A stretch of 64,000 bases of DNA, taken from Candidatus Kaiserbacteria bacterium (lineage in GTDB: Bacteria; Patescibacteriota; Minisyncoccia; Phycocordibacterales; UBA2100). The DNA lies in assembly GCA_003164215.1 (NCBI GenBank), contig PLSR01000017.1:28656-92655 (forward strand). The letters are read 5' to 3'. The position numbers and the translations under genes were made by a program. The notes beneath the pieces were generated by a model that had not been told where the DNA came from, ran no database searches, and saw only the letters and a list, made by a program, of their open reading frames with translations. Each line of letters opens with the position of its first letter. The first letter of the stretch is position 1. Below are positions 1 to 54,422 of this stretch, piece by piece.

Positions 1-70
1 TGAAGCACAGTTGCAGACCCTTCTTGCTGAGATCACCGCGCTCGGCGCGACGACCACACAAACTCAGTAA
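1..70 (+). CDS. 3' end of a CDS truncated by the window edge
   Basis: Open frame ...EAQLQTLLAEITALGATTTQTQ ending in TAA at 68-70. Confidence 0.5.
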   Translation, partial: EAQLQTLLAEITALGATTTQTQ

Positions 71-109
71 TCCTTTGGATTGTCAGGGACAATATTATTA
101 TTTGATCTT

Positions 110-471
110 CGTGACGCGGACCTCGTCAGAGCTGATCCTTGCAAGGCATTTTGTATCCCGATACCCGCTAAAATGCCCTGTTGGTAACTCGCTTCGCAAC
201 CCCCTAATACTAAGCTAGGGTCTTGGACGGTACCCGAGTCGGGGGTATCATGTTCCTTACACATCCCATAACGGCCCGAAAGGGTAACGGCCTAAACCTT
301 CAGCAATGAGGGCATGGTCGCGGAATCGCGTTCAACATAGACAACCCGTCATTCAGGGCGTTGAACGCGTTATATGGGGAAACTCATATAGGGCCTTCGG
401 GCCTCCTGGTGGCGGGCTTTGTGTATTCAAAGTCCATTCTCCAAGGAGGCGATTATAAGCTTTGTAATCGC
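110..471 (+). ncRNA. Candidate large structured ncRNA of unrecognised family
   Basis: Intergenic run of hairpins: GCCC-GAAA-GGGT; CGGCCTAAA-CCTTCA-GCAA-TGAGGG-CATGGTCG (11-nt-receptor-like); CGCGTTCAAC/GTTGAACGCG; TATATGGG-GAAA-CTCATATA; GGCC-TTCG-GGCC. G.U pairs favour the + strand. Confidence 0.6.
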
Positions 472-481
472 ACACAATGAT

Positions 482-1123
482 ATGTCCAATGACAATCAGT
501 CCTCCGAGGTTAAGACAAAAAATATCACGTTCGGTTTTGTGATCGCATGGATCTTTGCAGTCATCGTCGGTATTCCCGGCATCATGATGCTGTTTGAATC
601 TGGCAATCAAGTTGCCGGTTTGCTCTTTATCCTCGCGGCACTCGTGGCGTTGCCGCCCTTCAATGCGTTCATTAAGAGCAAGAGCAATATTGGTCTCTCT
701 GGCGGCCTCCGCTTCGCCCTCATCGTCGTGCTTTGCATCGTCGCGGGTGTAGTTGCATCAAAAGGACCCGCATCCTCTTCGGATGTTTCCGTTCCGGCCG
801 CATCTGACGCCGCCGCAGGAACGCAACAGGCCGCACCGCAAGTCCTCCTCAATATCAAAGGTAACGGTACCAAGACGACACAGACCTTTATTACCGCCGG
901 AGCATGGGATCTCTCATATACGTACGACTGTTCCAACTTCGGTGCCCAGCAGGGCAACTTCATAGTGTACGTGTATAACAGCGACGGATCGATGTCACTC
1001 AGCAACACCGGCGTGAACCAACTCGGCAAGAGCGGATCTGACGTTAATCATTACCACACCGGCGGCTCCTTCTATCTCACCATCAACTCCGAGTGCGCGT
1101 GGACGGTGACCGTGACGGGGTAG
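482..1123 (+). CDS. Membrane protein with three TM helices and a C-terminal beta-rich extracellular domain
   Basis: Hydrophobic N-terminal half, Ala/Ser linker, Cys-paired C-terminal domain; start placed at MSND. Confidence 0.7.
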   Translation: MSNDNQSSEVKTKNITFGFVIAWIFAVIVGIPGIMMLFESGNQVAGLLFILAALVALPPFNAFIKSKSNIGLSGGLRFALIVVLCIVAGVVASKGPASSSDVSVPAASDAAAGTQQAAPQVLLNIKGNGTKTTQTFITAGAWDLSYTYDCSNFGAQQGNFIVYVYNSDGSMSLSNTGVNQLGKSGSDVNHYHTGGSFYLTINSECAWTVTVTG

Positions 1124-1133
1124 GCCCCGTACT

Positions 1134-1868
1134 ATGATCAACGAGGCGATCAACTCGAAGATACTCGCGACTTGGAACAAGCACTTTGGCGCGAATGACG
1201 AAGTGCTTGCCCCGATCTTCTACGATGACTTCAAACAAGGAGGCTTGCTATTCGTCGGCATGAACCCATCGTTCAATCCGAAAGGGATGCGTGCGATCTT
1301 GCGCGGAACGGAGTTCGAGAAGCTTGATTTTGAATCTTTTTCCAAATGGAGCACTGCTATGTCGGATCCCACTCACGTCGATACCTCCATACGCATGGGG
1401 CGGCTCGTCAAAGAAAAATACTCTCCCCTCAAGCGCATGCATGAGATCGCGAAGGAGTGCAACACGCATTTCCAGCACATCGACCTCTTCGTATATCGGC
1501 AGACGAATCAAAACGAATTTCTGCCGCTCATTCGTGATACAAAGCGGGTGCTCAACGAATTTGGACGCGACCAGCTTGAGATATTTCTTGAGGCGCTCAA
1601 GGAGATACGACCTGAAGCCATCGTCGTTTCCAATGCCGGTTCCTGCGGAATCATACGGGAGCATTTCAAAGACAAGTTATTCTTCGACGAGCATCGCGGA
1701 TTCCACTGGCTCACATTGGACACCGAGCGCGTACCGGTTTTCTTTTCCTCCATGCTGAGCGGCCAGCGGGCGCTCGATACCGGATCATACGAGCGCCTCA
1801 AGTGGCACGTAGTACAAGCCGCAGGCAAACGACCGCCCGCGCGATTGAGCGTGAAGATTGAAATCTAA
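1134..1868 (+). CDS. Uracil-DNA glycosylase-like superfamily protein
   Basis: LLFVGMNPS motif-A-like segment and EIRPEAIVV strand typical of the UDG fold. Confidence 0.55.
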   Translation: MINEAINSKILATWNKHFGANDEVLAPIFYDDFKQGGLLFVGMNPSFNPKGMRAILRGTEFEKLDFESFSKWSTAMSDPTHVDTSIRMGRLVKEKYSPLKRMHEIAKECNTHFQHIDLFVYRQTNQNEFLPLIRDTKRVLNEFGRDQLEIFLEALKEIRPEAIVVSNAGSCGIIREHFKDKLFFDEHRGFHWLTLDTERVPVFFSSMLSGQRALDTGSYERLKWHVVQAAGKRPPARLSVKIEI

Positions 1869-1885: not shown

Positions 1886-3352
1886 TTAATAGAGCGGAAT
1901 ATACCTCGGCACGACGGGCGGCTTTTGCACAACACTCAGTACGAGATTCACGAACGCATCGGACAGATCGTCGTGTTTCTCGACGCCGAAGTGAATCATT
2001 TGATTGAGGAGTGCCTCGACCCTGCTTCTTGGAAAAAGGATTCTACCTTCCTTGATCATATTCGCGGTGAGATAGAGCCTCGTGCGCTTGTCTTTAGAGC
2101 CGGGATGAACAGTCTGTACGTTCTTGAACCCCTCAGCCTTCAGTTGTTGGGGGAGGGCCGCTTGATACCCGCCGATCTCGACGATGAACGTCGGCTTCTT
2201 TGACCCCTCGGTATATTTGCGTTCGAGCGCCTTGCAGAGGTCAATTGTCTCAGGGAAGGTGATTCTACGGTTTACGATGTCGGGCAAGATGTACACTTTC
2301 GTATCCTTGCCGTCGCCGAAAAGCAGTCCGGGCACCATAGCGGTGTAGTCGGCCGTGTCTTGTTGCGATATCGCAGGATCGATGCCGATGCGAACGCTGG
2401 CATGCTTGGTATATCCGAACTCATCGCGCTCACTGCGATCGGGCAACTCATCGTAGTACTTGATCCATTCGCGGCGAATGACCTGTTCGTCGCGCGGCAC
2501 GTTCTCCAGGAGATACTCCTGCCGCCATGCCAAGTCGCTCACGACGCTTTGCCGTAGCTCCTCTATTTTCTCCGGCGTGTCGAATTTCTCCGGCCACAGC
2601 GGCTTGCCGTCTTTGATGAGCGGAAACCAACGATACAGTCCCTTCAATTCACCTTTGTCCATTTTGTCCTTCAACCGCATGACAAGCGAATCCTCGTGGA
2701 GAAAGTTGCCAACCATCATGATACGCGTACCGATGTCGCCGAGCGGCGCAATCTCGCGGGTGAACCAGTCGAAGAGCTTGTTGCGACCCTCGATCGTCTT
2801 GACCGAGTTCACGTCCTCAATATCGTCCAAGATCAAGAGGTCGGGACGGTGCTCGTGGTGCCTAATGCCGCGTATCGACTGGTCGATGGACGCGATAGTG
2901 AGTCTCGCGCCGGTGTTTTGGAAGACGAGCGATGAGATCGCCCATTGATCGTTGCTCGTTTCCTCGCGGAAGGGTCCGAGGTCGCTTCGCAAGAGCGTGT
3001 TTTGCTCCAGCTCATACTTGATGTTGGCCATTTGCTGCCTCGCTTGTGACTGGGTCTGGCAGATGATGAGTACAAACTTGCGCTGTTGCGCTCCCAAGAT
3101 TGCCCATAATGAGTAGGAGAATGTTATCAGCGTCGACTTGCCCGAGCCGCGAAACGCGACGATGCACGAAAGCTTGTTCGACATATCCTCGGTGATGCGG
3201 AATATCTCTTTTTGAAACTCCGCTACCGGATACTTGATGTAGTGCGGAAAGTAGGTGTGGAAGAACAGCACGTGGCTCTCGCGCACGACGAACTGCCGCA
3301 CCGTGCGGTCTTTGGCGAGCGCCTCCTGCAGTTCTTTTTCACTCAGATTCAT
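1886..3352 (-). CDS. Phage terminase large subunit
   Basis: Walker A FRGSGKST, Walker B LLILDD, nuclease motifs IGIDPA and HDDLSDA. Confidence 0.9.
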   Translation of the reverse strand: MNLSEKELQEALAKDRTVRQFVVRESHVLFFHTYFPHYIKYPVAEFQKEIFRITEDMSNKLSCIVAFRGSGKSTLITFSYSLWAILGAQQRKFVLIICQTQSQARQQMANIKYELEQNTLLRSDLGPFREETSNDQWAISSLVFQNTGARLTIASIDQSIRGIRHHEHRPDLLILDDIEDVNSVKTIEGRNKLFDWFTREIAPLGDIGTRIMMVGNFLHEDSLVMRLKDKMDKGELKGLYRWFPLIKDGKPLWPEKFDTPEKIEELRQSVVSDLAWRQEYLLENVPRDEQVIRREWIKYYDELPDRSERDEFGYTKHASVRIGIDPAISQQDTADYTAMVPGLLFGDGKDTKVYILPDIVNRRITFPETIDLCKALERKYTEGSKKPTFIVEIGGYQAALPQQLKAEGFKNVQTVHPGSKDKRTRLYLTANMIKEGRILFPRSRVEALLNQMIHFGVEKHDDLSDAFVNLVLSVVQKPPVVPRYIPLY

Positions 3353-3734
3353 GATGTTCGGTGAATGCCTTCGCCAACGCAATGAGCGTAGCGGATTTCT
3401 CGACCTGCTCGGGCGTCATCTCCCGCACAGTCTCGAGTGTACCCTCGATCTCCAGTCGGTTGCGATATTCCGCGCGGTAGGTTTTCAGCCACAGTCTGAT
3501 GGAGCGGTAGTCGCTCATCTTTATCATGTTCATGAGCTGTCCCTCGGCGATGTCCGAGATGAAATCGCGCCCGTCGTACACGGCGGCGTCGACCGCCGCC
3601 GCGAATTTCGGATCCTTTTTCTTCCATTCGTAGAACGCGGTCCTGCCGATGCCCGTCTTAGCACAGGCGACCTCGACGACCGGCGTTTTCTTCAGCTCCT
3701 CGATCACTTTCTTTTTTATCACCGCGCTCTTCAT
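3339..3734 (-). CDS. Terminase small subunit-like HTH protein
   Basis: VACAKTGIGRTAFYEWKKKDPKF HTH; overlaps the terL start. Confidence 0.75.
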   Translation of the reverse strand: MKSAVIKKKVIEELKKTPVVEVACAKTGIGRTAFYEWKKKDPKFAAAVDAAVYDGRDFISDIAEGQLMNMIKMSDYRSIRLWLKTYRAEYRNRLEIEGTLETVREMTPEQVEKSATLIALAKAFTEHHESE

Positions 3735-5080
3735 ATCTTTTCGGCCTTGAGCCCCGTGAGTTTCTCCAGGCGTTTGAGGATTACGGCGGTGTAAACGTTG
3801 CTCTTCTCCATGAGATAGCAGCGGCGCTTCATCTTGAGCGCGGCAGCTGCCGTAGAACCGCTACCACCGTAGGGCTCAAAAATCACATCGCCGCGCTTGC
3901 TAAGGACTTTGAGGTACGGGATGAGTATTTCCACCGGCTTGGTGCCGAAGATAATGCCTTGGCCCGACGACTTCTCATCAGCCGCGATGTGCTCGATGAA
4001 ATCAGTCGGGCAGTACTTCTTGCCCTTCGCGTACGGCTCCCAGTGCGGCTTACCCGAACTGGCGAAGAGCGCCGTTTCGTACTCTTCTTGAAGCAGTGGC
4101 TCCTCCGGCTCGAGGTTAAGGCCAACGTGGCCCGAGGTACCCACGAGCGCGATGTCGTGCTTGTTAAAAAACTTGTACTTCGCGCTAAAGCCCTGGACTC
4201 TGTTAGGTAGGTGCCAGACTATCGTGTTGCGATATCTCCAGTGCACCTCGAGCGCATTCCATATGGTGCGAAGGTTTTTGGGATGCTCGAAGATGATTAT
4301 CGAGAAGTCCGGCTTTTGAACCTTTGTCACATTGGCCATCCAGAGGTCGCTAAAGTTCTCCGGCAGTGTCTCGGTGCCCAGGTAGACGCGGTTTTTCTTC
4401 GCGCCGAACCCGCGCGTGACGCCGTCTTTCTGCTTCGTTTTGCCTTTGAGATAGTCCAAAATATAGGGAGGGTCGGTTAGGCACATGTCGGCTTTCTCGC
4501 CGTCCATGAGCGCGAGTACATCCGCTTCGACGGTGCTATCGCCGTTCATCACGATGGCGTCGCCCACACGAAAGCGATCACCGTGCTTGATATCGACGTT
4601 CGTAATTTCGAGCTTCGCAAGCTCCTTCGCGAGATCAAACACCTCCGGCTGCTCGTCGATTCCGAAGATGTCATCGAGTTCTTCGGAGCTAAACCCGATG
4701 CCCGCGAGAATGGACTCGTCGAACTCGGCGAGCGCCTTGAGATCGAACTCCGCCACGTTTTTATTCAACCGAATGATGAGCTCGGCCTCGCGCGTGGGAT
4801 CGGAGATGGTGATATACACGACCGGCACGGTTTCGTAGTGAAGTTCCTTCAGCACTTCGGCTCTCAGATTTCCTCCCAAAATTATTTTCTCGCGTCCTGG
4901 CGCGTTATTCACTATGAGGGGGTCGACGATGCCGTATCCCTTTATCGACTCCTTGACCTGCGCGATGACCTCCTTCGACCAGACGCGAGGATTTTTCTCG
5001 GGGTGCCGCAGTGACGCGAGTGGCACGTAATCGATCTTTAATGTGGCTGATACTGGCGCACTATGGATTGTTTTGTCCAT
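3731..5080 (-). CDS. ParB-like N-terminal domain fused to N6-A/N4-C DNA methyltransferase
   Basis: NPR...GIVDPLIV...ILGGNLR ParB motif; TDPPY and FEPYGGSGST MTase motifs in beta order. Confidence 0.9.
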   Translation of the reverse strand: MDKTIHSAPVSATLKIDYVPLASLRHPEKNPRVWSKEVIAQVKESIKGYGIVDPLIVNNAPGREKIILGGNLRAEVLKELHYETVPVVYITISDPTREAELIIRLNKNVAEFDLKALAEFDESILAGIGFSSEELDDIFGIDEQPEVFDLAKELAKLEITNVDIKHGDRFRVGDAIVMNGDSTVEADVLALMDGEKADMCLTDPPYILDYLKGKTKQKDGVTRGFGAKKNRVYLGTETLPENFSDLWMANVTKVQKPDFSIIIFEHPKNLRTIWNALEVHWRYRNTIVWHLPNRVQGFSAKYKFFNKHDIALVGTSGHVGLNLEPEEPLLQEEYETALFASSGKPHWEPYAKGKKYCPTDFIEHIAADEKSSGQGIIFGTKPVEILIPYLKVLSKRGDVIFEPYGGSGSTAAAALKMKRRCYLMEKSNVYTAVILKRLEKLTGLKAEKI

Positions 5081-5100
5081 GGTATTAATGGTTACGCAAC

Positions 5101-5210
5101 GAAAAAACGCCCAGACACGCACCCGACCGTAAGGTCAGATATGTGTCTGGGCGTTCCAGACGATGCTCTTCTAATTGTGGCTCACAGAACTACCTGCGCC
5201 TATTATAGCA
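5101..5210 (-). promoter_or_regulatory. Extended -10 promoter, ~90-nt leader and intrinsic terminator upstream of the MTase
   Basis: TGCTATAAT at 5210-5202; stem AACGCCCAGACAC/GTGTCTGGGCGTT (5106-5155) running into a U-tract. Confidence 0.65.
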
Positions 5211-25527: not shown

Positions 25528-26514
25528 ATGATCGAGGAAGCGATCATCGAGCGGGCGCAAAAAGCGATCGATGAACGCGTGTTCCCGGGATGCGTTGTCG
25601 GTGCGGTGTATGCGGATGGCGGGCGCATTATAATTCCACTTGGGTCACTAACCTATGAACGCGTTGCCTCCGAAGTGCGCGCCGCGACCGTGTATGATCT
25701 CGCATCTGTTACGAAATCCATACCTGTCGCATCGCTCGCGCTTGCGTTCACTGCGGAAGGGAAGCTCGCGCTCGCCGATCCTGTGGTCAACCATTTGCCA
25801 GAACTTCAGAACGACTTTGGCACCACGATCGAAGATCTCCTGCGATATCGCGTGCATGGCGTCCAGCTTTCGACCTTGCGTCGTATGACATCTGACGAAA
25901 TTCGAAACTATGTTTTCGAGCGCGGATTCGACGCGCCGCCCGGAGATTCGAACTATACGAATCTTCCCGCATTCGTTCTCGGGATGATCATTGAACGGGT
26001 CGGTGGTGCGTCGCTTGAAACACTTGGTCGATCATATTTCTTCGATCGATTCGATATGCCTGCGACAACATTCTTCCCGGATGCTGCAGATTGCGCTCCG
26101 ACGGAGGTCGACGAACGCGGTGAAGTACGCGGATCGCCGCATGATGAGAGCGCGTATCAATTCGCGATCGCACACGCATGCGCGGGACATGCAGGACTTT
26201 TTTCTACCGTTCCCGACCTCTTGAATTTTCTCGAAGCGCTGCTACGCGCAGACGATGGATTTACGAAATCCATCATGGACGCTGCGGAGGCAGGGCTCGG
26301 TTGGCAAATCGAGGGGGATTTTTTAGGTCATTACGCAGACGTTCGTGCGTTCGGCAAAACAGGATTCACCGGCACCAGTGTCTGTATCGATCCAACCAAA
26401 GGTATCGCGTTCGTCATACTTTCCAATTGTACGTATCCCAAGCGACCGGCGGATAATGCGGCAATAAATTCGTTTCGATCGGACATTGCCGACATCATTC
26501 TCGGATCTATTTAA
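25528..26514 (+). CDS. Serine hydrolase, beta-lactamase family
   Basis: ASVTK, YTN, KTGFTG. Confidence 0.85.
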   Translation: MIEEAIIERAQKAIDERVFPGCVVGAVYADGGRIIIPLGSLTYERVASEVRAATVYDLASVTKSIPVASLALAFTAEGKLALADPVVNHLPELQNDFGTTIEDLLRYRVHGVQLSTLRRMTSDEIRNYVFERGFDAPPGDSNYTNLPAFVLGMIIERVGGASLETLGRSYFFDRFDMPATTFFPDAADCAPTEVDERGEVRGSPHDESAYQFAIAHACAGHAGLFSTVPDLLNFLEALLRADDGFTKSIMDAAEAGLGWQIEGDFLGHYADVRAFGKTGFTGTSVCIDPTKGIAFVILSNCTYPKRPADNAAINSFRSDIADIILGSI

Positions 26515-28276
26515 CCGTCACGCTTTTGGCGATGTTGCGCGGCTTGTCCACGTTGTGATCAAGTTCGACCGCCATGTAGTAGGCAAGTAATTGCAAGGGG
26601 ATGATGTTGAGGATCGCGCTCGTCTCCTTGGTATCGGGGACTGCCAGAAATTCATCGAAGTTCTCGTCCGTCTGTGGGGCGATGCCGAAAACTGACGCGC
26701 CTCGGGCGCGAACTTCGTGTATCGCGTTCAATACGCTCGCGCGCACTTCGTCGTTGCTGACCGCCGTGATTACCGAGACCCCCGGCGCCATCAACGTTAT
26801 CGCATAATGTTTGAGGTCTCCCGCAGGGATCGCGTGAGCATGTACGTACGAACCCTCGATGATCTTCACCATACCTTCGCGGATGATCTGCAGGTTCTGA
26901 CCTTTACCCAAGAGATAGAGATGTTCTTTGTGCGCTAGACGTGACGCATGGCCCCTCACTTTGGCAATGAATTTGTCATCCGCGAGCAGTTTCTCGGTCT
27001 CGGTCGCCAGCTTTTTGAGATTTCGTTTTCCCTCGGCCAATTTTCCCTCGACTGCCTTCGCGACGAGGTACCCCCACGCGATCTGCGACACGAAGATCTT
27101 CGTCGACATGACACAGATCTCGGGGCCGGCATTCGCCATGAACTTATGATCCGACAGACGCGTCATCATACTGCCCGGCATATTCACGAAGCTCGCGATG
27201 GTAGCCCTGCGAGCATGTACCAGTTCGAGTACTTCGAGCACATCGGCTGTTTCGCCGCTCTGCGACGGCGCGATGAGAACGTCGCCCTTACTGATCAATG
27301 ATTTGTATTCAAACGCTTCGGCTCCGATGAGCTCCTTTGCGTCGATATGTCCATAAAGCCGAAGATAAAATGCCATTTGCGCTGCTGCGGCACCGGCAGT
27401 ACCCGAACCGATCGTATAGACGCGCCGCGCCCGTTTGATCGCTCGCGCGAGCGCGAGATACGTAGCATCCGATTCTTTGATGACCTGCCGAATGACGAAC
27501 GGCGCCTCGTAGATCTCTTTGAGCATGTAGTGATCATAGGCACCTTTTGAAACCACCACATCTTTGAGGAGGTTTTTTTCATAGACCTGCTTGATCTTCT
27601 TACCGGTCGCAATGCTCGACAGCGTAATCGCTCTTTCACGCACGGCAACCATCTCTCCGTTGTCCAACACGAGGATGGACTTCACGTGGGGGGCGCATGA
27701 GAATACGTCAGACGAAAGATAGATTTCCGATGAGGTCCCCAAGCCGAGAACGAGCGGGGAACCATTGCGTGCAGCGATGATCTCGCCACTTTTCGCGAGC
27801 ACAATGATCGTATTGCGTCCTTCGAGATCTTTGAACGACAATCGTACGGCTTCAGAAAGTGTTTTTGCTTTGCGCATGCGCCGCTCGATAAGTCGCACGA
27901 TGACCTCGGTATCTGTTTCCGAAATGAACTTGAACCCGTCTTTTTGAAGTGACGACTTAAGCGCGGGGGCGTTCTCGACGATACCGTTGTGGGCGAGCGC
28001 GAATGACCTGTCGCTCGAATAATGCGGATGCGCGTTCACATCTGTAACTTTGCCGTGCGTCGCCCAACGCGTATGACCGATACCGATGTGACTTCGTGGC
28101 AAACTCCCGGCGTCATAGCCCACGAGCCCGATATGTTTATCAACGCTGATAGATCCATTGCTCACGACGGCGATGCCCCAGCTGTCATATCCGCGGTACT
28201 CGAGTCGCTGTAAACCTTCTAACACTGCTTCGCGCGCATCACGCGCTGCTCCGGCATACCCAAAAATTCCACACAT
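26507..28276 (-). CDS. glmS: Glutamine-fructose-6-phosphate aminotransferase
   Basis: MCGIFG, LEYRGYDS, GHTRWATHG, DKPRNIAKSVTV. Confidence 0.97.
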   Translation of the reverse strand: MCGIFGYAGAARDAREAVLEGLQRLEYRGYDSWGIAVVSNGSISVDKHIGLVGYDAGSLPRSHIGIGHTRWATHGKVTDVNAHPHYSSDRSFALAHNGIVENAPALKSSLQKDGFKFISETDTEVIVRLIERRMRKAKTLSEAVRLSFKDLEGRNTIIVLAKSGEIIAARNGSPLVLGLGTSSEIYLSSDVFSCAPHVKSILVLDNGEMVAVRERAITLSSIATGKKIKQVYEKNLLKDVVVSKGAYDHYMLKEIYEAPFVIRQVIKESDATYLALARAIKRARRVYTIGSGTAGAAAAQMAFYLRLYGHIDAKELIGAEAFEYKSLISKGDVLIAPSQSGETADVLEVLELVHARRATIASFVNMPGSMMTRLSDHKFMANAGPEICVMSTKIFVSQIAWGYLVAKAVEGKLAEGKRNLKKLATETEKLLADDKFIAKVRGHASRLAHKEHLYLLGKGQNLQIIREGMVKIIEGSYVHAHAIPAGDLKHYAITLMAPGVSVITAVSNDEVRASVLNAIHEVRARGASVFGIAPQTDENFDEFLAVPDTKETSAILNIIPLQLLAYYMAVELDHNVDKPRNIAKSVTVK

Positions 28277-28291
28277 AGGTGTAAATGGAAG

Positions 28292-28471
28292 CGCTCCTCA
28301 TCGTCCCTTTGTTTTCGACGTCGCCGTCGGGTTTTTGGGAAGATGTAACGGCCTGGAGTACCGAAGGGTGCCCGCAGATACTACGAAGACGATTGCCTTC
28401 ATGTCCGATCGTCAGTCAAAGTGACTGACCCCTTTCCTCGTATCCCCACGTTCTACGTGGGGCCACACGCT
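28292..28471 (-). ncRNA. glmS ribozyme (divergent variant)
   Basis: Minus strand A|GCGTGTG, P1, ACGAGGA, ATCGG, CTGCGGGCACCCTTCGG, P3 loop CTCC pairing with 3' GGAG, and P4 with AAAA...GGCGAC...ACAAA; directly 5' of glmS. Confidence 0.75.
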
Positions 28472-28553
28472 CTCGTTCTTTTTCGCTTCGAAATTATTGC
28501 TTCTAATGCAGGCCGTTCATTCATAACGGCCTTCTTCAACAATAGCGCATATC

Positions 28554-54337: not shown

Positions 54338-54422
54338 GGAGAGATGCCTGAGTGGTCTAAAGGACACGCTTGGAAAGCGTGCGTGGGGCAACCCACCGAG
54401 GGTTCGAATCCCTCTCTCTCCG
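54338..54422 (+). tRNA. tRNA-Ser(GGA)
   Basis: GGAGAGA/TCTCTCC acceptor, CACGC-TTGGAAA-GCGTG anticodon arm, long variable arm, GGTTCGAATCC; CCA not encoded. Confidence 0.97.

Follow-up and report, generated by a model that had tools for sequence, protein, structure and literature searches.

We analysed a stretch of 64,000 nucleotides (nt) from a Candidatus Kaiserbacteria bacterium (GenBank assembly GCA_003164215.1, contig PLSR01000017.1, positions 28,656 to 92,655 of the forward strand; hereafter the window, to which all coordinates refer), in which an initial annotation made from the sequence had marked positions 110–471 as an unrecognised structured RNA of about 350 nt. What was flagged proved to be another copy of LOOT, a catalogued and functionally orphan RNA of the candidate phyla radiation (CPR). 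We incline to the view that LOOT, together with a predicted promoter at 223–251, an additional 5′ hairpin (P0) and a 3′ tail at 405–424, stands at the very start of the mRNA for the gene with ATG 482, as its initial ~165 nt, and that it would act there in cis as a stop-or-go leader. This view is based on the family match, on helices that covary, on a covarying helix between the loop of the central stem S1 and the tail (S2) with a U-rich end, and on a constant place before an open reading frame (ORF) on the same strand. Three features beyond the Rfam model, namely, the predicted promoter directly upstream, P0 and the S2 helix of ~20 base pairs (bp), were observed at the level of the family, from 73 copies in 49 genomes and 11 copies from other taxonomic families.

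The scan with the covariance models of Rfam 15 (cmscan) gave a LOOT (RF03000) match at 289–404 on the plus strand, with 64.8 bits compared with a gathering score of 46.4. The match is full-length (model positions 1–121 of 121), with an E-value of 6.8e-10 in the 64-kb window and 1.3e-11 in positions 1–1200. Within positions 1–1200, on both strands, with permissive filters and at E-values up to 10, no Rfam family besides LOOT was detected; in this search there was no covariance-model match to group I or group II introns, RNase P, tmRNA, the c-di-GMP-I riboswitch or any ribozyme family, in agreement with the initial annotation, which had seen no group I or II intron, RNase P, tmRNA or GEMM core. 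The same annotation had held that an Rfam hit would remove the novelty of the RNA, and the RNA is thus not new. Its description of the molecule itself stood up in part: the five local hairpins that it drew in 275–403 all exist, as P0, P1, S1, P4 and P5, and its picture of a tertiary-folded RNA with a GAAA loop and a CCUAAA/CAUGG motif resembling the 11-nt receptor was borne out by the LOOT model and by column conservation. The positions of these and the other features of the locus are as follows.

178–258, plus strand: sequence-conserved block TGTTGGTAAC..CTTCGCAA..CTAAGCTAGGGT, then an inverted repeat at 229–249, with the promoter inside the block
223–251, plus strand: predicted sigma-70-type promoter, −35 TTGGAC at 223–228 and −10 TATCAT at 246–251
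274–285, plus strand: P0, the extra 5′ hairpin, GCCC-GAAA-GGGU, outside the Rfam model
289–404, plus strand: LOOT core according to RF03000, comprising P1, S1, P4 and P5 (cmscan)
289–319, plus strand: P1, with the CCUAAA...CAUGG receptor-like internal loop and a GCAA cap (Rfam model)
327–336 with 360–369, plus strand: S1, the 10-bp central stem (Rfam model)
337–357, plus strand: 5′ strand of S2, which is the apical loop of S1; L1 337–343, A344 unpaired, X 345–352 and 354–357, U353 bulged
371–390, plus strand: P4, with a GAAA loop (Rfam model)
391–404, plus strand: P5, with a UUCG loop (Rfam model)
405–424, plus strand: 3′ strand of S2, which is the 3′ tail; X′ 405–416, then U-rich CUUUGUGU 417–424; outside the Rfam model
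403–448, plus strand: alternative hairpin of X′ with X″ (428–446), taking in C403-U404 of the P5 3′ strand (minimum-free-energy fold)
449–471, plus strand: 7-bp hairpin GCGAUUA/UAAUCGC between GGAGG 445–449 and the start codon (minimum-free-energy fold)
482–1123, plus strand: downstream ORF of 213 amino acids (aa) with an N-terminal hydrophobic segment and no Pfam family at E 1e-5

The name LOOT stands for many tetraloops. It comes from the survey of Weinberg et al. 2017 (PMC5737381), in the main text of which a term search found no discussion of LOOT; the supplement to that survey may already describe the flanks or the pseudoknot. A figure of the Rfam 14 paper (PMC7779021) shows LOOT as a ‘metagenomic-based RNA’, Rivas 2020 (PMC7657543) gives 28 cross-covariations for six helices of together ~43 bp, and a table of the Rfam 15 paper (PMC11701678) gives two added covarying LOOT pairs. 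No function is assigned to LOOT in the literature found by full-text search, the reach of which did not extend to the survey supplement. The window copy shares with the catalogued family the full-length match, the six helices, the receptor-like loop of P1 and the GAAA loop of P4. It differs in that the Rfam model stops at P5 (404) and covers neither the promoter nor P0, S2 or the tail, and in that Rfam types LOOT as a small RNA, whereas the copy described here is leader-like.

Two sets of LOOT loci were compared. The first comprised all 73 matches over the cut-off within the taxonomic family, with 1.5 kb on each side (the sub-threshold match G111 was left out, and locus L069 ends at a contig edge inside LOOT and lacks a 3′ flank), and the second comprised 11 LOOT loci from other families. 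In the alignment of 72 copies, P0, outer P1, S1, P4 and the loop-to-tail helix taken together had 89.9% of cells paired compared with 67.4% after shuffling, a level reached by none of 500 shuffles, and double-sided changes were found at 34 of 38 pairs. Covariation among homologues, which the initial annotation had left to be checked, is present. P5 and inner P1 were left out of these pair counts because MAFFT aligned both poorly. Considered one by one, S1 showed double-sided changes at 9 of 10 pairs, P4 at 8 of 8 and outer P1 at 3 of 4; P0 had 74–81% of cells paired and changes on both sides at all four of its pairs, and was gapped in ~15 of the 72 copies. The columns of CCUAA, AUGG and GAAA were invariant or at least 90% conserved, and we infer that the GAAA loop of P4 docks into the receptor-like loop of P1.

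The segment 71–481 folded better than its shuffles on the plus strand (z −3.42, none of 100 shuffles as good) and less markedly so on the minus strand (z −1.80, 5 of 100 as good). Conserved RNA structure spans from ~259–274 to ~424, which makes the LOOT unit ~165 nt long. About half of the flagged segment 110–471 lies outside the folded RNA, and the extent of ~350 nt given at first was too long.

The helix beyond the Rfam model, S2, joins the apical loop of S1 to the 3′ tail. In the 72-copy alignment, X/X′ had 92.9% of cells paired compared with 74.9% in shuffles and 38–57% with slid partners, with double-sided changes at 10 of 12 pairs and a covariation score reached by none of 500 shuffles. 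Beyond the mismatch of A344 and C417, pairing resumes between L1 (337–343) and the U-rich segment 418–424, for which 87.3% of cells were paired and double-sided changes were present at 6 of 7 pairs, again with none of 500 shuffles as good; ACUGAA/UUCAGU in some copies is, for example, AGAAAA/UUUUGU in others. The entire 23-nt loop of S1 is complementary to the tail, giving an S2 helix of ~20 bp. The median duplex energy was −23.9 kcal/mol for S2 and −15.9 kcal/mol for S1, compared with −12.2 kcal/mol for foreign combinations of loop and tail, and the corresponding values of the window copy were −22.8 kcal/mol for S2 and −15.5 kcal/mol for S1. In copy L053, read by eye, P5 is missing, yet the tail still matches the S1 loop. 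Both long-range pairs of the initial annotation are displaced by these results: the segment 410–416, which had been joined to 164–170, covaries with 345–351, while 164–170 lies in DNA unconserved among 15 loci; and 346–350, which had been joined to 226–230, belongs to the covarying S2, while 226–230 lies in the −35 region of the predicted promoter.

Judged by its sequence, S2 looks like the helix of an intrinsic terminator, in that a GC-rich X/X′ is followed by a U-rich run. X/X′ of the window copy has 12 bp, 8 of them G-C, with CUUUGUGU directly after it, and 51 of the 72 copies have 5 or more U among the 8 nt that follow X′, the window copy having 5. A simple terminator scan made no call at S2, because its ‘loop’ of 47 nt holds two hairpins. 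For full S2 to form, the S1 loop would need to be stretched over two turns of helix, with 0 and 2 nt left as linkers, and S1 and full S2 would thus be alternative states. From this geometric argument, rather than from computation, we infer that the two are mutually exclusive.

The place of LOOT relative to the next gene was nearly constant. A same-strand ATG ORF of at least 60 aa started at +20 to +100 of LOOT in 67 of 72 loci; the divergent side gave 16 of 71, and random places gave 155 of 730 (21–23%). A permissive criterion (at least 35 aa, +20 to +200) had been satisfied at 72 of 72 loci but also at 430 of 730 random places, and was replaced by the stricter one; at all 11 loci from other families, an ATG within +20 to +102 opens an ORF of at least 35 aa, a count that belongs to the permissive criterion with its high random rate. 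In four loci the ATG lies only 21–25 nt past the 3′ end of the Rfam match and ~5–10 nt past the end of X′, which leaves no room for a separate promoter of the ORF.

The products encoded directly downstream are diverse. No Pfam hit at E 0.001 was obtained for 48 of the 72, and the remainder included PG_binding_1 (5), N6_N4 DNA methylase (3), Lipoprotein_Ltp (2) and tRNA_anti-like (2), as well as VRR-NUC, PDDEXK_4, DUF4357, CAP, bPH_2 and zinc ribbons. No Pfam hit to a terminase family was found among these 72 ORFs. The sole common trait was a hydrophobic N-terminus, with a hydrophobic segment within the first 80 residues in 59 of 72 products, compared with 33 of 199 other, uncurated ORFs from the same loci. 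A coherent regulon, as expected of a riboswitch, was not found in the 72 loci, the downstream genes being diverse.

Within window positions 1–1300, one promoter-like site was detected, at 223–251, and its sequence predicts a transcription start near A259. A single promoter-like site is no more than shuffles give, and the support for it therefore comes from conservation across loci. The strict pattern TGnTAnnnT was present at −80 to −21 of LOOT in 36 of 73 loci compared with 14 of 501 control windows, and TAnnnT in 69 of 73 loci compared with 219 of 501. In most copies the −10-like box lies 27–46 nt ahead of the Rfam start, and in the commonest cases AC stands 6–7 nt past this box.

The promoter is embedded in the 80-nt block 178–258, which is common to 15 of the 73 LOOT loci, window included, and has a sharp start at CTGTTGGTAAC (~178); among these 15 loci, no conservation was found in 110–177. 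RNAalifold on 178–258 gave only one 6-bp inverted repeat, overlapping the −10 box, in which three pairs covary weakly. We considered 178–258 as a 5′ RNA domain and decided against it, on account of this lone 6-bp repeat and of the presence of the block ahead of other ORFs without LOOT. The block motif TGTTGGTAAC..CTTCGCAA..CTAAGCTAGG was found at 17 places in 14 of 151 genomes, whereas the reversed pattern gave no hits; 9 of the 17 places are directly before LOOT and 8 are not, and 5 of those 8 are directly before another ORF. The block is probably promoter or operator DNA rather than part of the folded RNA, and possibly a promoter/operator shared by cargo genes of mobile elements.

Several further observations were made on this block. 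The LOOT-free blocks (L175, L176, L178, L183 and L188) sit 65–94 nt before the ATG of other ORFs, and the ORFs behind such blocks encode a bPH-like protein, membrane proteins and an excisionase-like helix-turn-helix protein. The inverted repeat at 229–249 on the plus strand, GGTACCC/GGGGTATC, overlaps the −10 box and was flagged as terminator-like by the simple scan (7 pairs, then a T-rich run); it varies on both arms between loci, with GGTAGCC/GGCTATC and ATAATAGC/GTTATTAT as other forms. A LOOT remnant lies ~80–200 nt past the block of L179 (G068:C20), with the −10 box, P0, P1 and the S1 5′ strand kept before the sequence diverges; the G068 genome of this remnant has no Rfam LOOT match.

Between LOOT and the start codon, the spacer holds possible competitors for the strands of S1 and S2. 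The hairpin at 403–448 is long and imperfect, and its base joins CUCC 403–406 to GGAG 445–448 of the Shine-Dalgarno-like AAGGAGG. By eye, both this hairpin and the one at 449–471 were also seen in L045 and L063, the latter hairpin with a U-A to U-G change. The GGAGG itself lies 32 nt before ATG 482, and the intervening 7-bp hairpin would shorten this distance; the bringing together of Shine-Dalgarno sequence and ATG by a hairpin is the layout of a few phage genes. Across the family, 29 of 72 loci hold a locus-specific X″ partner for the G-rich part of the tail (ranking in the top 5% when compared with foreign X′; 3.6 expected), and the X′/X″ duplex reached −12 kcal/mol or better in 41 of 72. 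In 7 of the 72 loci, compared with 11 of 389 controls, a canonical hairpin with a U-run stands 7–15 nt ahead of the ATG, and the 5′ arm of this pre-ATG terminator overlaps X″, giving the classical 1:2 / 2:3 / 3:4 attenuator layout.

A second kind of competitor is directed at S1. In 15 of the 72 loci the S1 3′ strand is complementary to its own start region and beats every foreign strand, with energies of −17 to −26 kcal/mol compared with ~−7 kcal/mol for foreign ones; the loci of this subclass carry an exact 9–15-nt repeat of the S1 5′ strand at the start codon. The 14 strongest include all three methylases and most of the nuclease-like genes, and the hydrophobic N-terminus is missing in 9 of these 14 ORFs compared with 4 of 58 elsewhere, a difference whose p-value is inflated by kinship. 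The repeat loci L018, L041, L070, L039, L058, L071, L073, L014 and L055 mostly precede N6_N4_Mtase, VRR-NUC and PDDEXK_4 genes and not genes of membrane proteins.

As a stop-or-go leader, LOOT might work in the following manner. Transcription from ~259 would run through LOOT toward the ORF at 482–1123, with S1 and full S2 as competing states; the P4 GAAA loop, docked in the P1 receptor, would clamp S1, which lies between P1 and P4, shut, while S2 with its U-run may work as an intrinsic terminator. After read-through, the tail could be taken over by a downstream segment (403–448 in the window copy), touching the ribosome-binding site. In the start-codon-repeat subclass, to which the window copy does not belong, the S1 3′ strand could pair with the repeat of its partner at the start codon. 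A single on/off logic for all loci was also tried and was not derivable; the terminator-type and the ribosome-site-type platforms seem to point in opposite directions.

A number of points weigh against the leader. The regulatory logic seems to differ among loci, with S2 expected to free a terminator in some and a ribosome site in others, and the downstream genes share no pathway, which is unusual for a metabolite riboswitch. The 12-bp pseudoknot of X/X′ alone could coexist with S1. The window copy itself is at background in the 13-nt X″ test (−9.0 kcal/mol) and is without the start-codon repeat (−7.3 kcal/mol with its own start region). LOOT copies are kin, and the counts given above overstate their independence. 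The RNA evidence consists of assembled contigs from three RNA libraries, from which starts, ends and levels are not readable; at the window locus such contigs cover 873–1144, 1219–1440 and 1483–1831 at a depth of 2–3.5, the lack of coverage in 395–872 not being evidence. Finally, one RNA contig of 163 nt from a foreign LOOT copy covers about the equivalent of 263–426, which suits a discrete small RNA no less than it does a leader, although the library is not shown to be DNA-free, and Rfam types LOOT as ‘Gene; sRNA’.

These last two points lead to an alternative that we consider rather unlikely, in which LOOT is a free-standing small RNA gene with its own promoter and its own terminator (S2 and the U-run), placed ahead of mobile-island cargo and acting in trans or on the neighbouring mRNA. 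Besides the Rfam type and the contig, which spans just the predicted unit, the promoter directly upstream and the GC-rich helix, which in 51 of 72 copies leads into 8 nt with 5 or more U, are as a small RNA gene would have them, and the match between the S1 3′ strand and the neighbouring start region in 15 of 72 loci could serve an antisense-like action. Such a gene leaves unexplained, however, why the next ORF almost always lies on the same strand and at a similar distance (67 of 72 loci compared with 21–23% in controls), with the ATG within 21–25 nt of the LOOT end in four loci. It is equally at odds with the spacer, which holds locus-specific partners for the tail and, ahead of the ATG of 7 loci, a further terminator of canonical form that overlaps X″ and would be superfluous for a finished small RNA.

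LOOT might also be a static, compact 5′ cap, in which S1 and the 12-bp pseudoknot stand together and stabilise or insulate cargo mRNAs, with no switching and no signal. This would accommodate the covariation of both S1 and X/X′, the rigid fold suggested by the tetraloop/receptor pair and the many stable tetraloops, and downstream genes too diverse for one ligand-based regulon, as well as the occurrence of LOOT on 7 viral contigs of IMG/VR and beside a terminase gene in the window. We nevertheless regard it as improbable, since the pairing extends to L1 and the U-run, and ~20 bp formed from a 23-nt loop are hard to fit with an intact S1; the locus-specific competitors for the tail and the S1 3′ strand, and the terminator-like elements between promoter and ORF, also speak against a fold that never changes. 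The view from which this study started, of a new structured RNA or ribozyme of ~350 nt at 110–471 with a role in packaging or replication, now appears scarcely credible. It could draw on the terminase and ParB-methylase genes 1.4–4.6 kb away and on the better-than-shuffled fold of the plus strand of 71–481; set against these are the known Rfam family, the unconserved 110–177, a single conserved inverted repeat in 178–258 and the absence of a ribozyme family match up to E 10 in 1–1200. LOOT copies lie at the 5′ end of diverse single genes, none of the 72 downstream ORFs has a Pfam hit to a terminase family (the terminase neighbourhood having been examined for the window copy only), and nothing found points to a ribozyme, packaging or replication role.

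The leader reading was further compared with known systems. Attenuators and riboswitch platforms work through terminator/antiterminator or sequester/anti-sequester helices. LOOT resembles them in having a conserved fold with variable helices behind it, which are predicted to exclude one another and which either run into a stretch of U or overlie the start region, and in sitting between a predicted promoter and a single ORF; it differs in that it has no known ligand, leader peptide or protein partner and that its genes share no pathway. LOOT is also peculiar in that its terminator-like helix takes its 5′ strand from the apical loop of a hairpin, so that the competitor is the stem of that hairpin. 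The c-di-GMP-I riboswitch (GEMM-I, RF01051) has a tetraloop/receptor contact, stands ahead of diverse genes, often those of envelope proteins, also in phages, and exists in ‘on’ and ‘off’ forms. LOOT, with its putative tetraloop/receptor contact and its place before diverse genes, many of them for envelope proteins and some on viral contigs, resembles GEMM-I, which we take as a lead and not as membership: there was no Rfam match to GEMM-I up to E 10 in 1–1200, the helices are laid out differently, and LOOT has no evident junction for a binding pocket. Phage ‘moron’ units and the antitermination RNAs HK022 put and EAR present a promoter, a leader and a single cargo gene, with terminators between leader and gene. 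The likeness of LOOT to these is in the layout of the unit within or beside prophage-like DNA, with no likeness of sequence or structure seen, and antitermination by LOOT would be pure conjecture.

LOOT recurs among the relatives of the window's bacterium. Four copies over the cut-off were found in the genome of the window (1,005,050 bases, 28 contigs, 93.7% complete). Within the family, LOOT was detected in 49 of 151 genomes (7 of 11 genera), 48 of which had a match over the cut-off and none more than four copies, and in an even sample of the phylum in 30 of 151 genomes (27 of 131 genera); both counts include the window's own genome. In the 14 well-known control genomes there were no matches in either search. 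A strict pattern, which recovers 32 of 84 LOOT loci, matched 7 viral contigs in IMG/VR (L165–L171), and all 7 were confirmed as LOOT by Rfam with 56.5–93.8 bits. At a distance of 1.4 kb from the window copy, the opposite strand carries a gene for a large terminase (Terminase_6C) and one for a ParB_N/N6_N4-methylase, in the following neighbourhood.

1886–5122, minus strand: Terminase_6C, a 131-aa ORF and a ParB_N/N6_N4-methylase fusion

This setting, together with the viral contigs, fits carriage on phage-like elements, without showing a packaging role. Of the initial proposal of a new RNA on a CPR mobile element, the CPR host and the adjoining terminase and ParB-methylase genes have thus stood, while the novelty of the RNA has not. 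Elsewhere in the window, a glmS ribozyme/riboswitch (RF00234) was detected at 28289–28482 on the minus strand (52.6 bits compared with a cut-off of 37), with a glmS-like gene carrying SIS and glutamine amidotransferase domains just downstream of it at 26507–28276 (minus strand), which is the ordinary arrangement; and an 85-nt tRNA with a long variable arm was detected at 54338–54422 on the plus strand (RF00005, 58.9 bits).

Going one step further than the leader, we tentatively raise the possibility, which we hold to be doubtful at present, that LOOT is a new kind of switch specific to the mobile DNA of CPR bacteria. A clamped S1 would compete with a 20-bp S2, both of which covary, and the balance between them would decide on termination and translation of cargo genes, mostly those of envelope proteins, with nucleases and methylases under a second lock at the start codon; it would be set by some signal, such as an ion, a small molecule, a protein or the state of the element. 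The flagged find itself is ordinary, being one more copy of a catalogued RNA. For specialists, the promoter-proximal leader, the S2 helix outside the Rfam model and the competing downstream partners are testable hypotheses, and the tie to envelope-protein, nuclease and methylase genes in the mobile DNA of Patescibacteria is a further lead. Such a switch, if real, would join the small number of devices for gene control that have been described from these uncultured bacteria.

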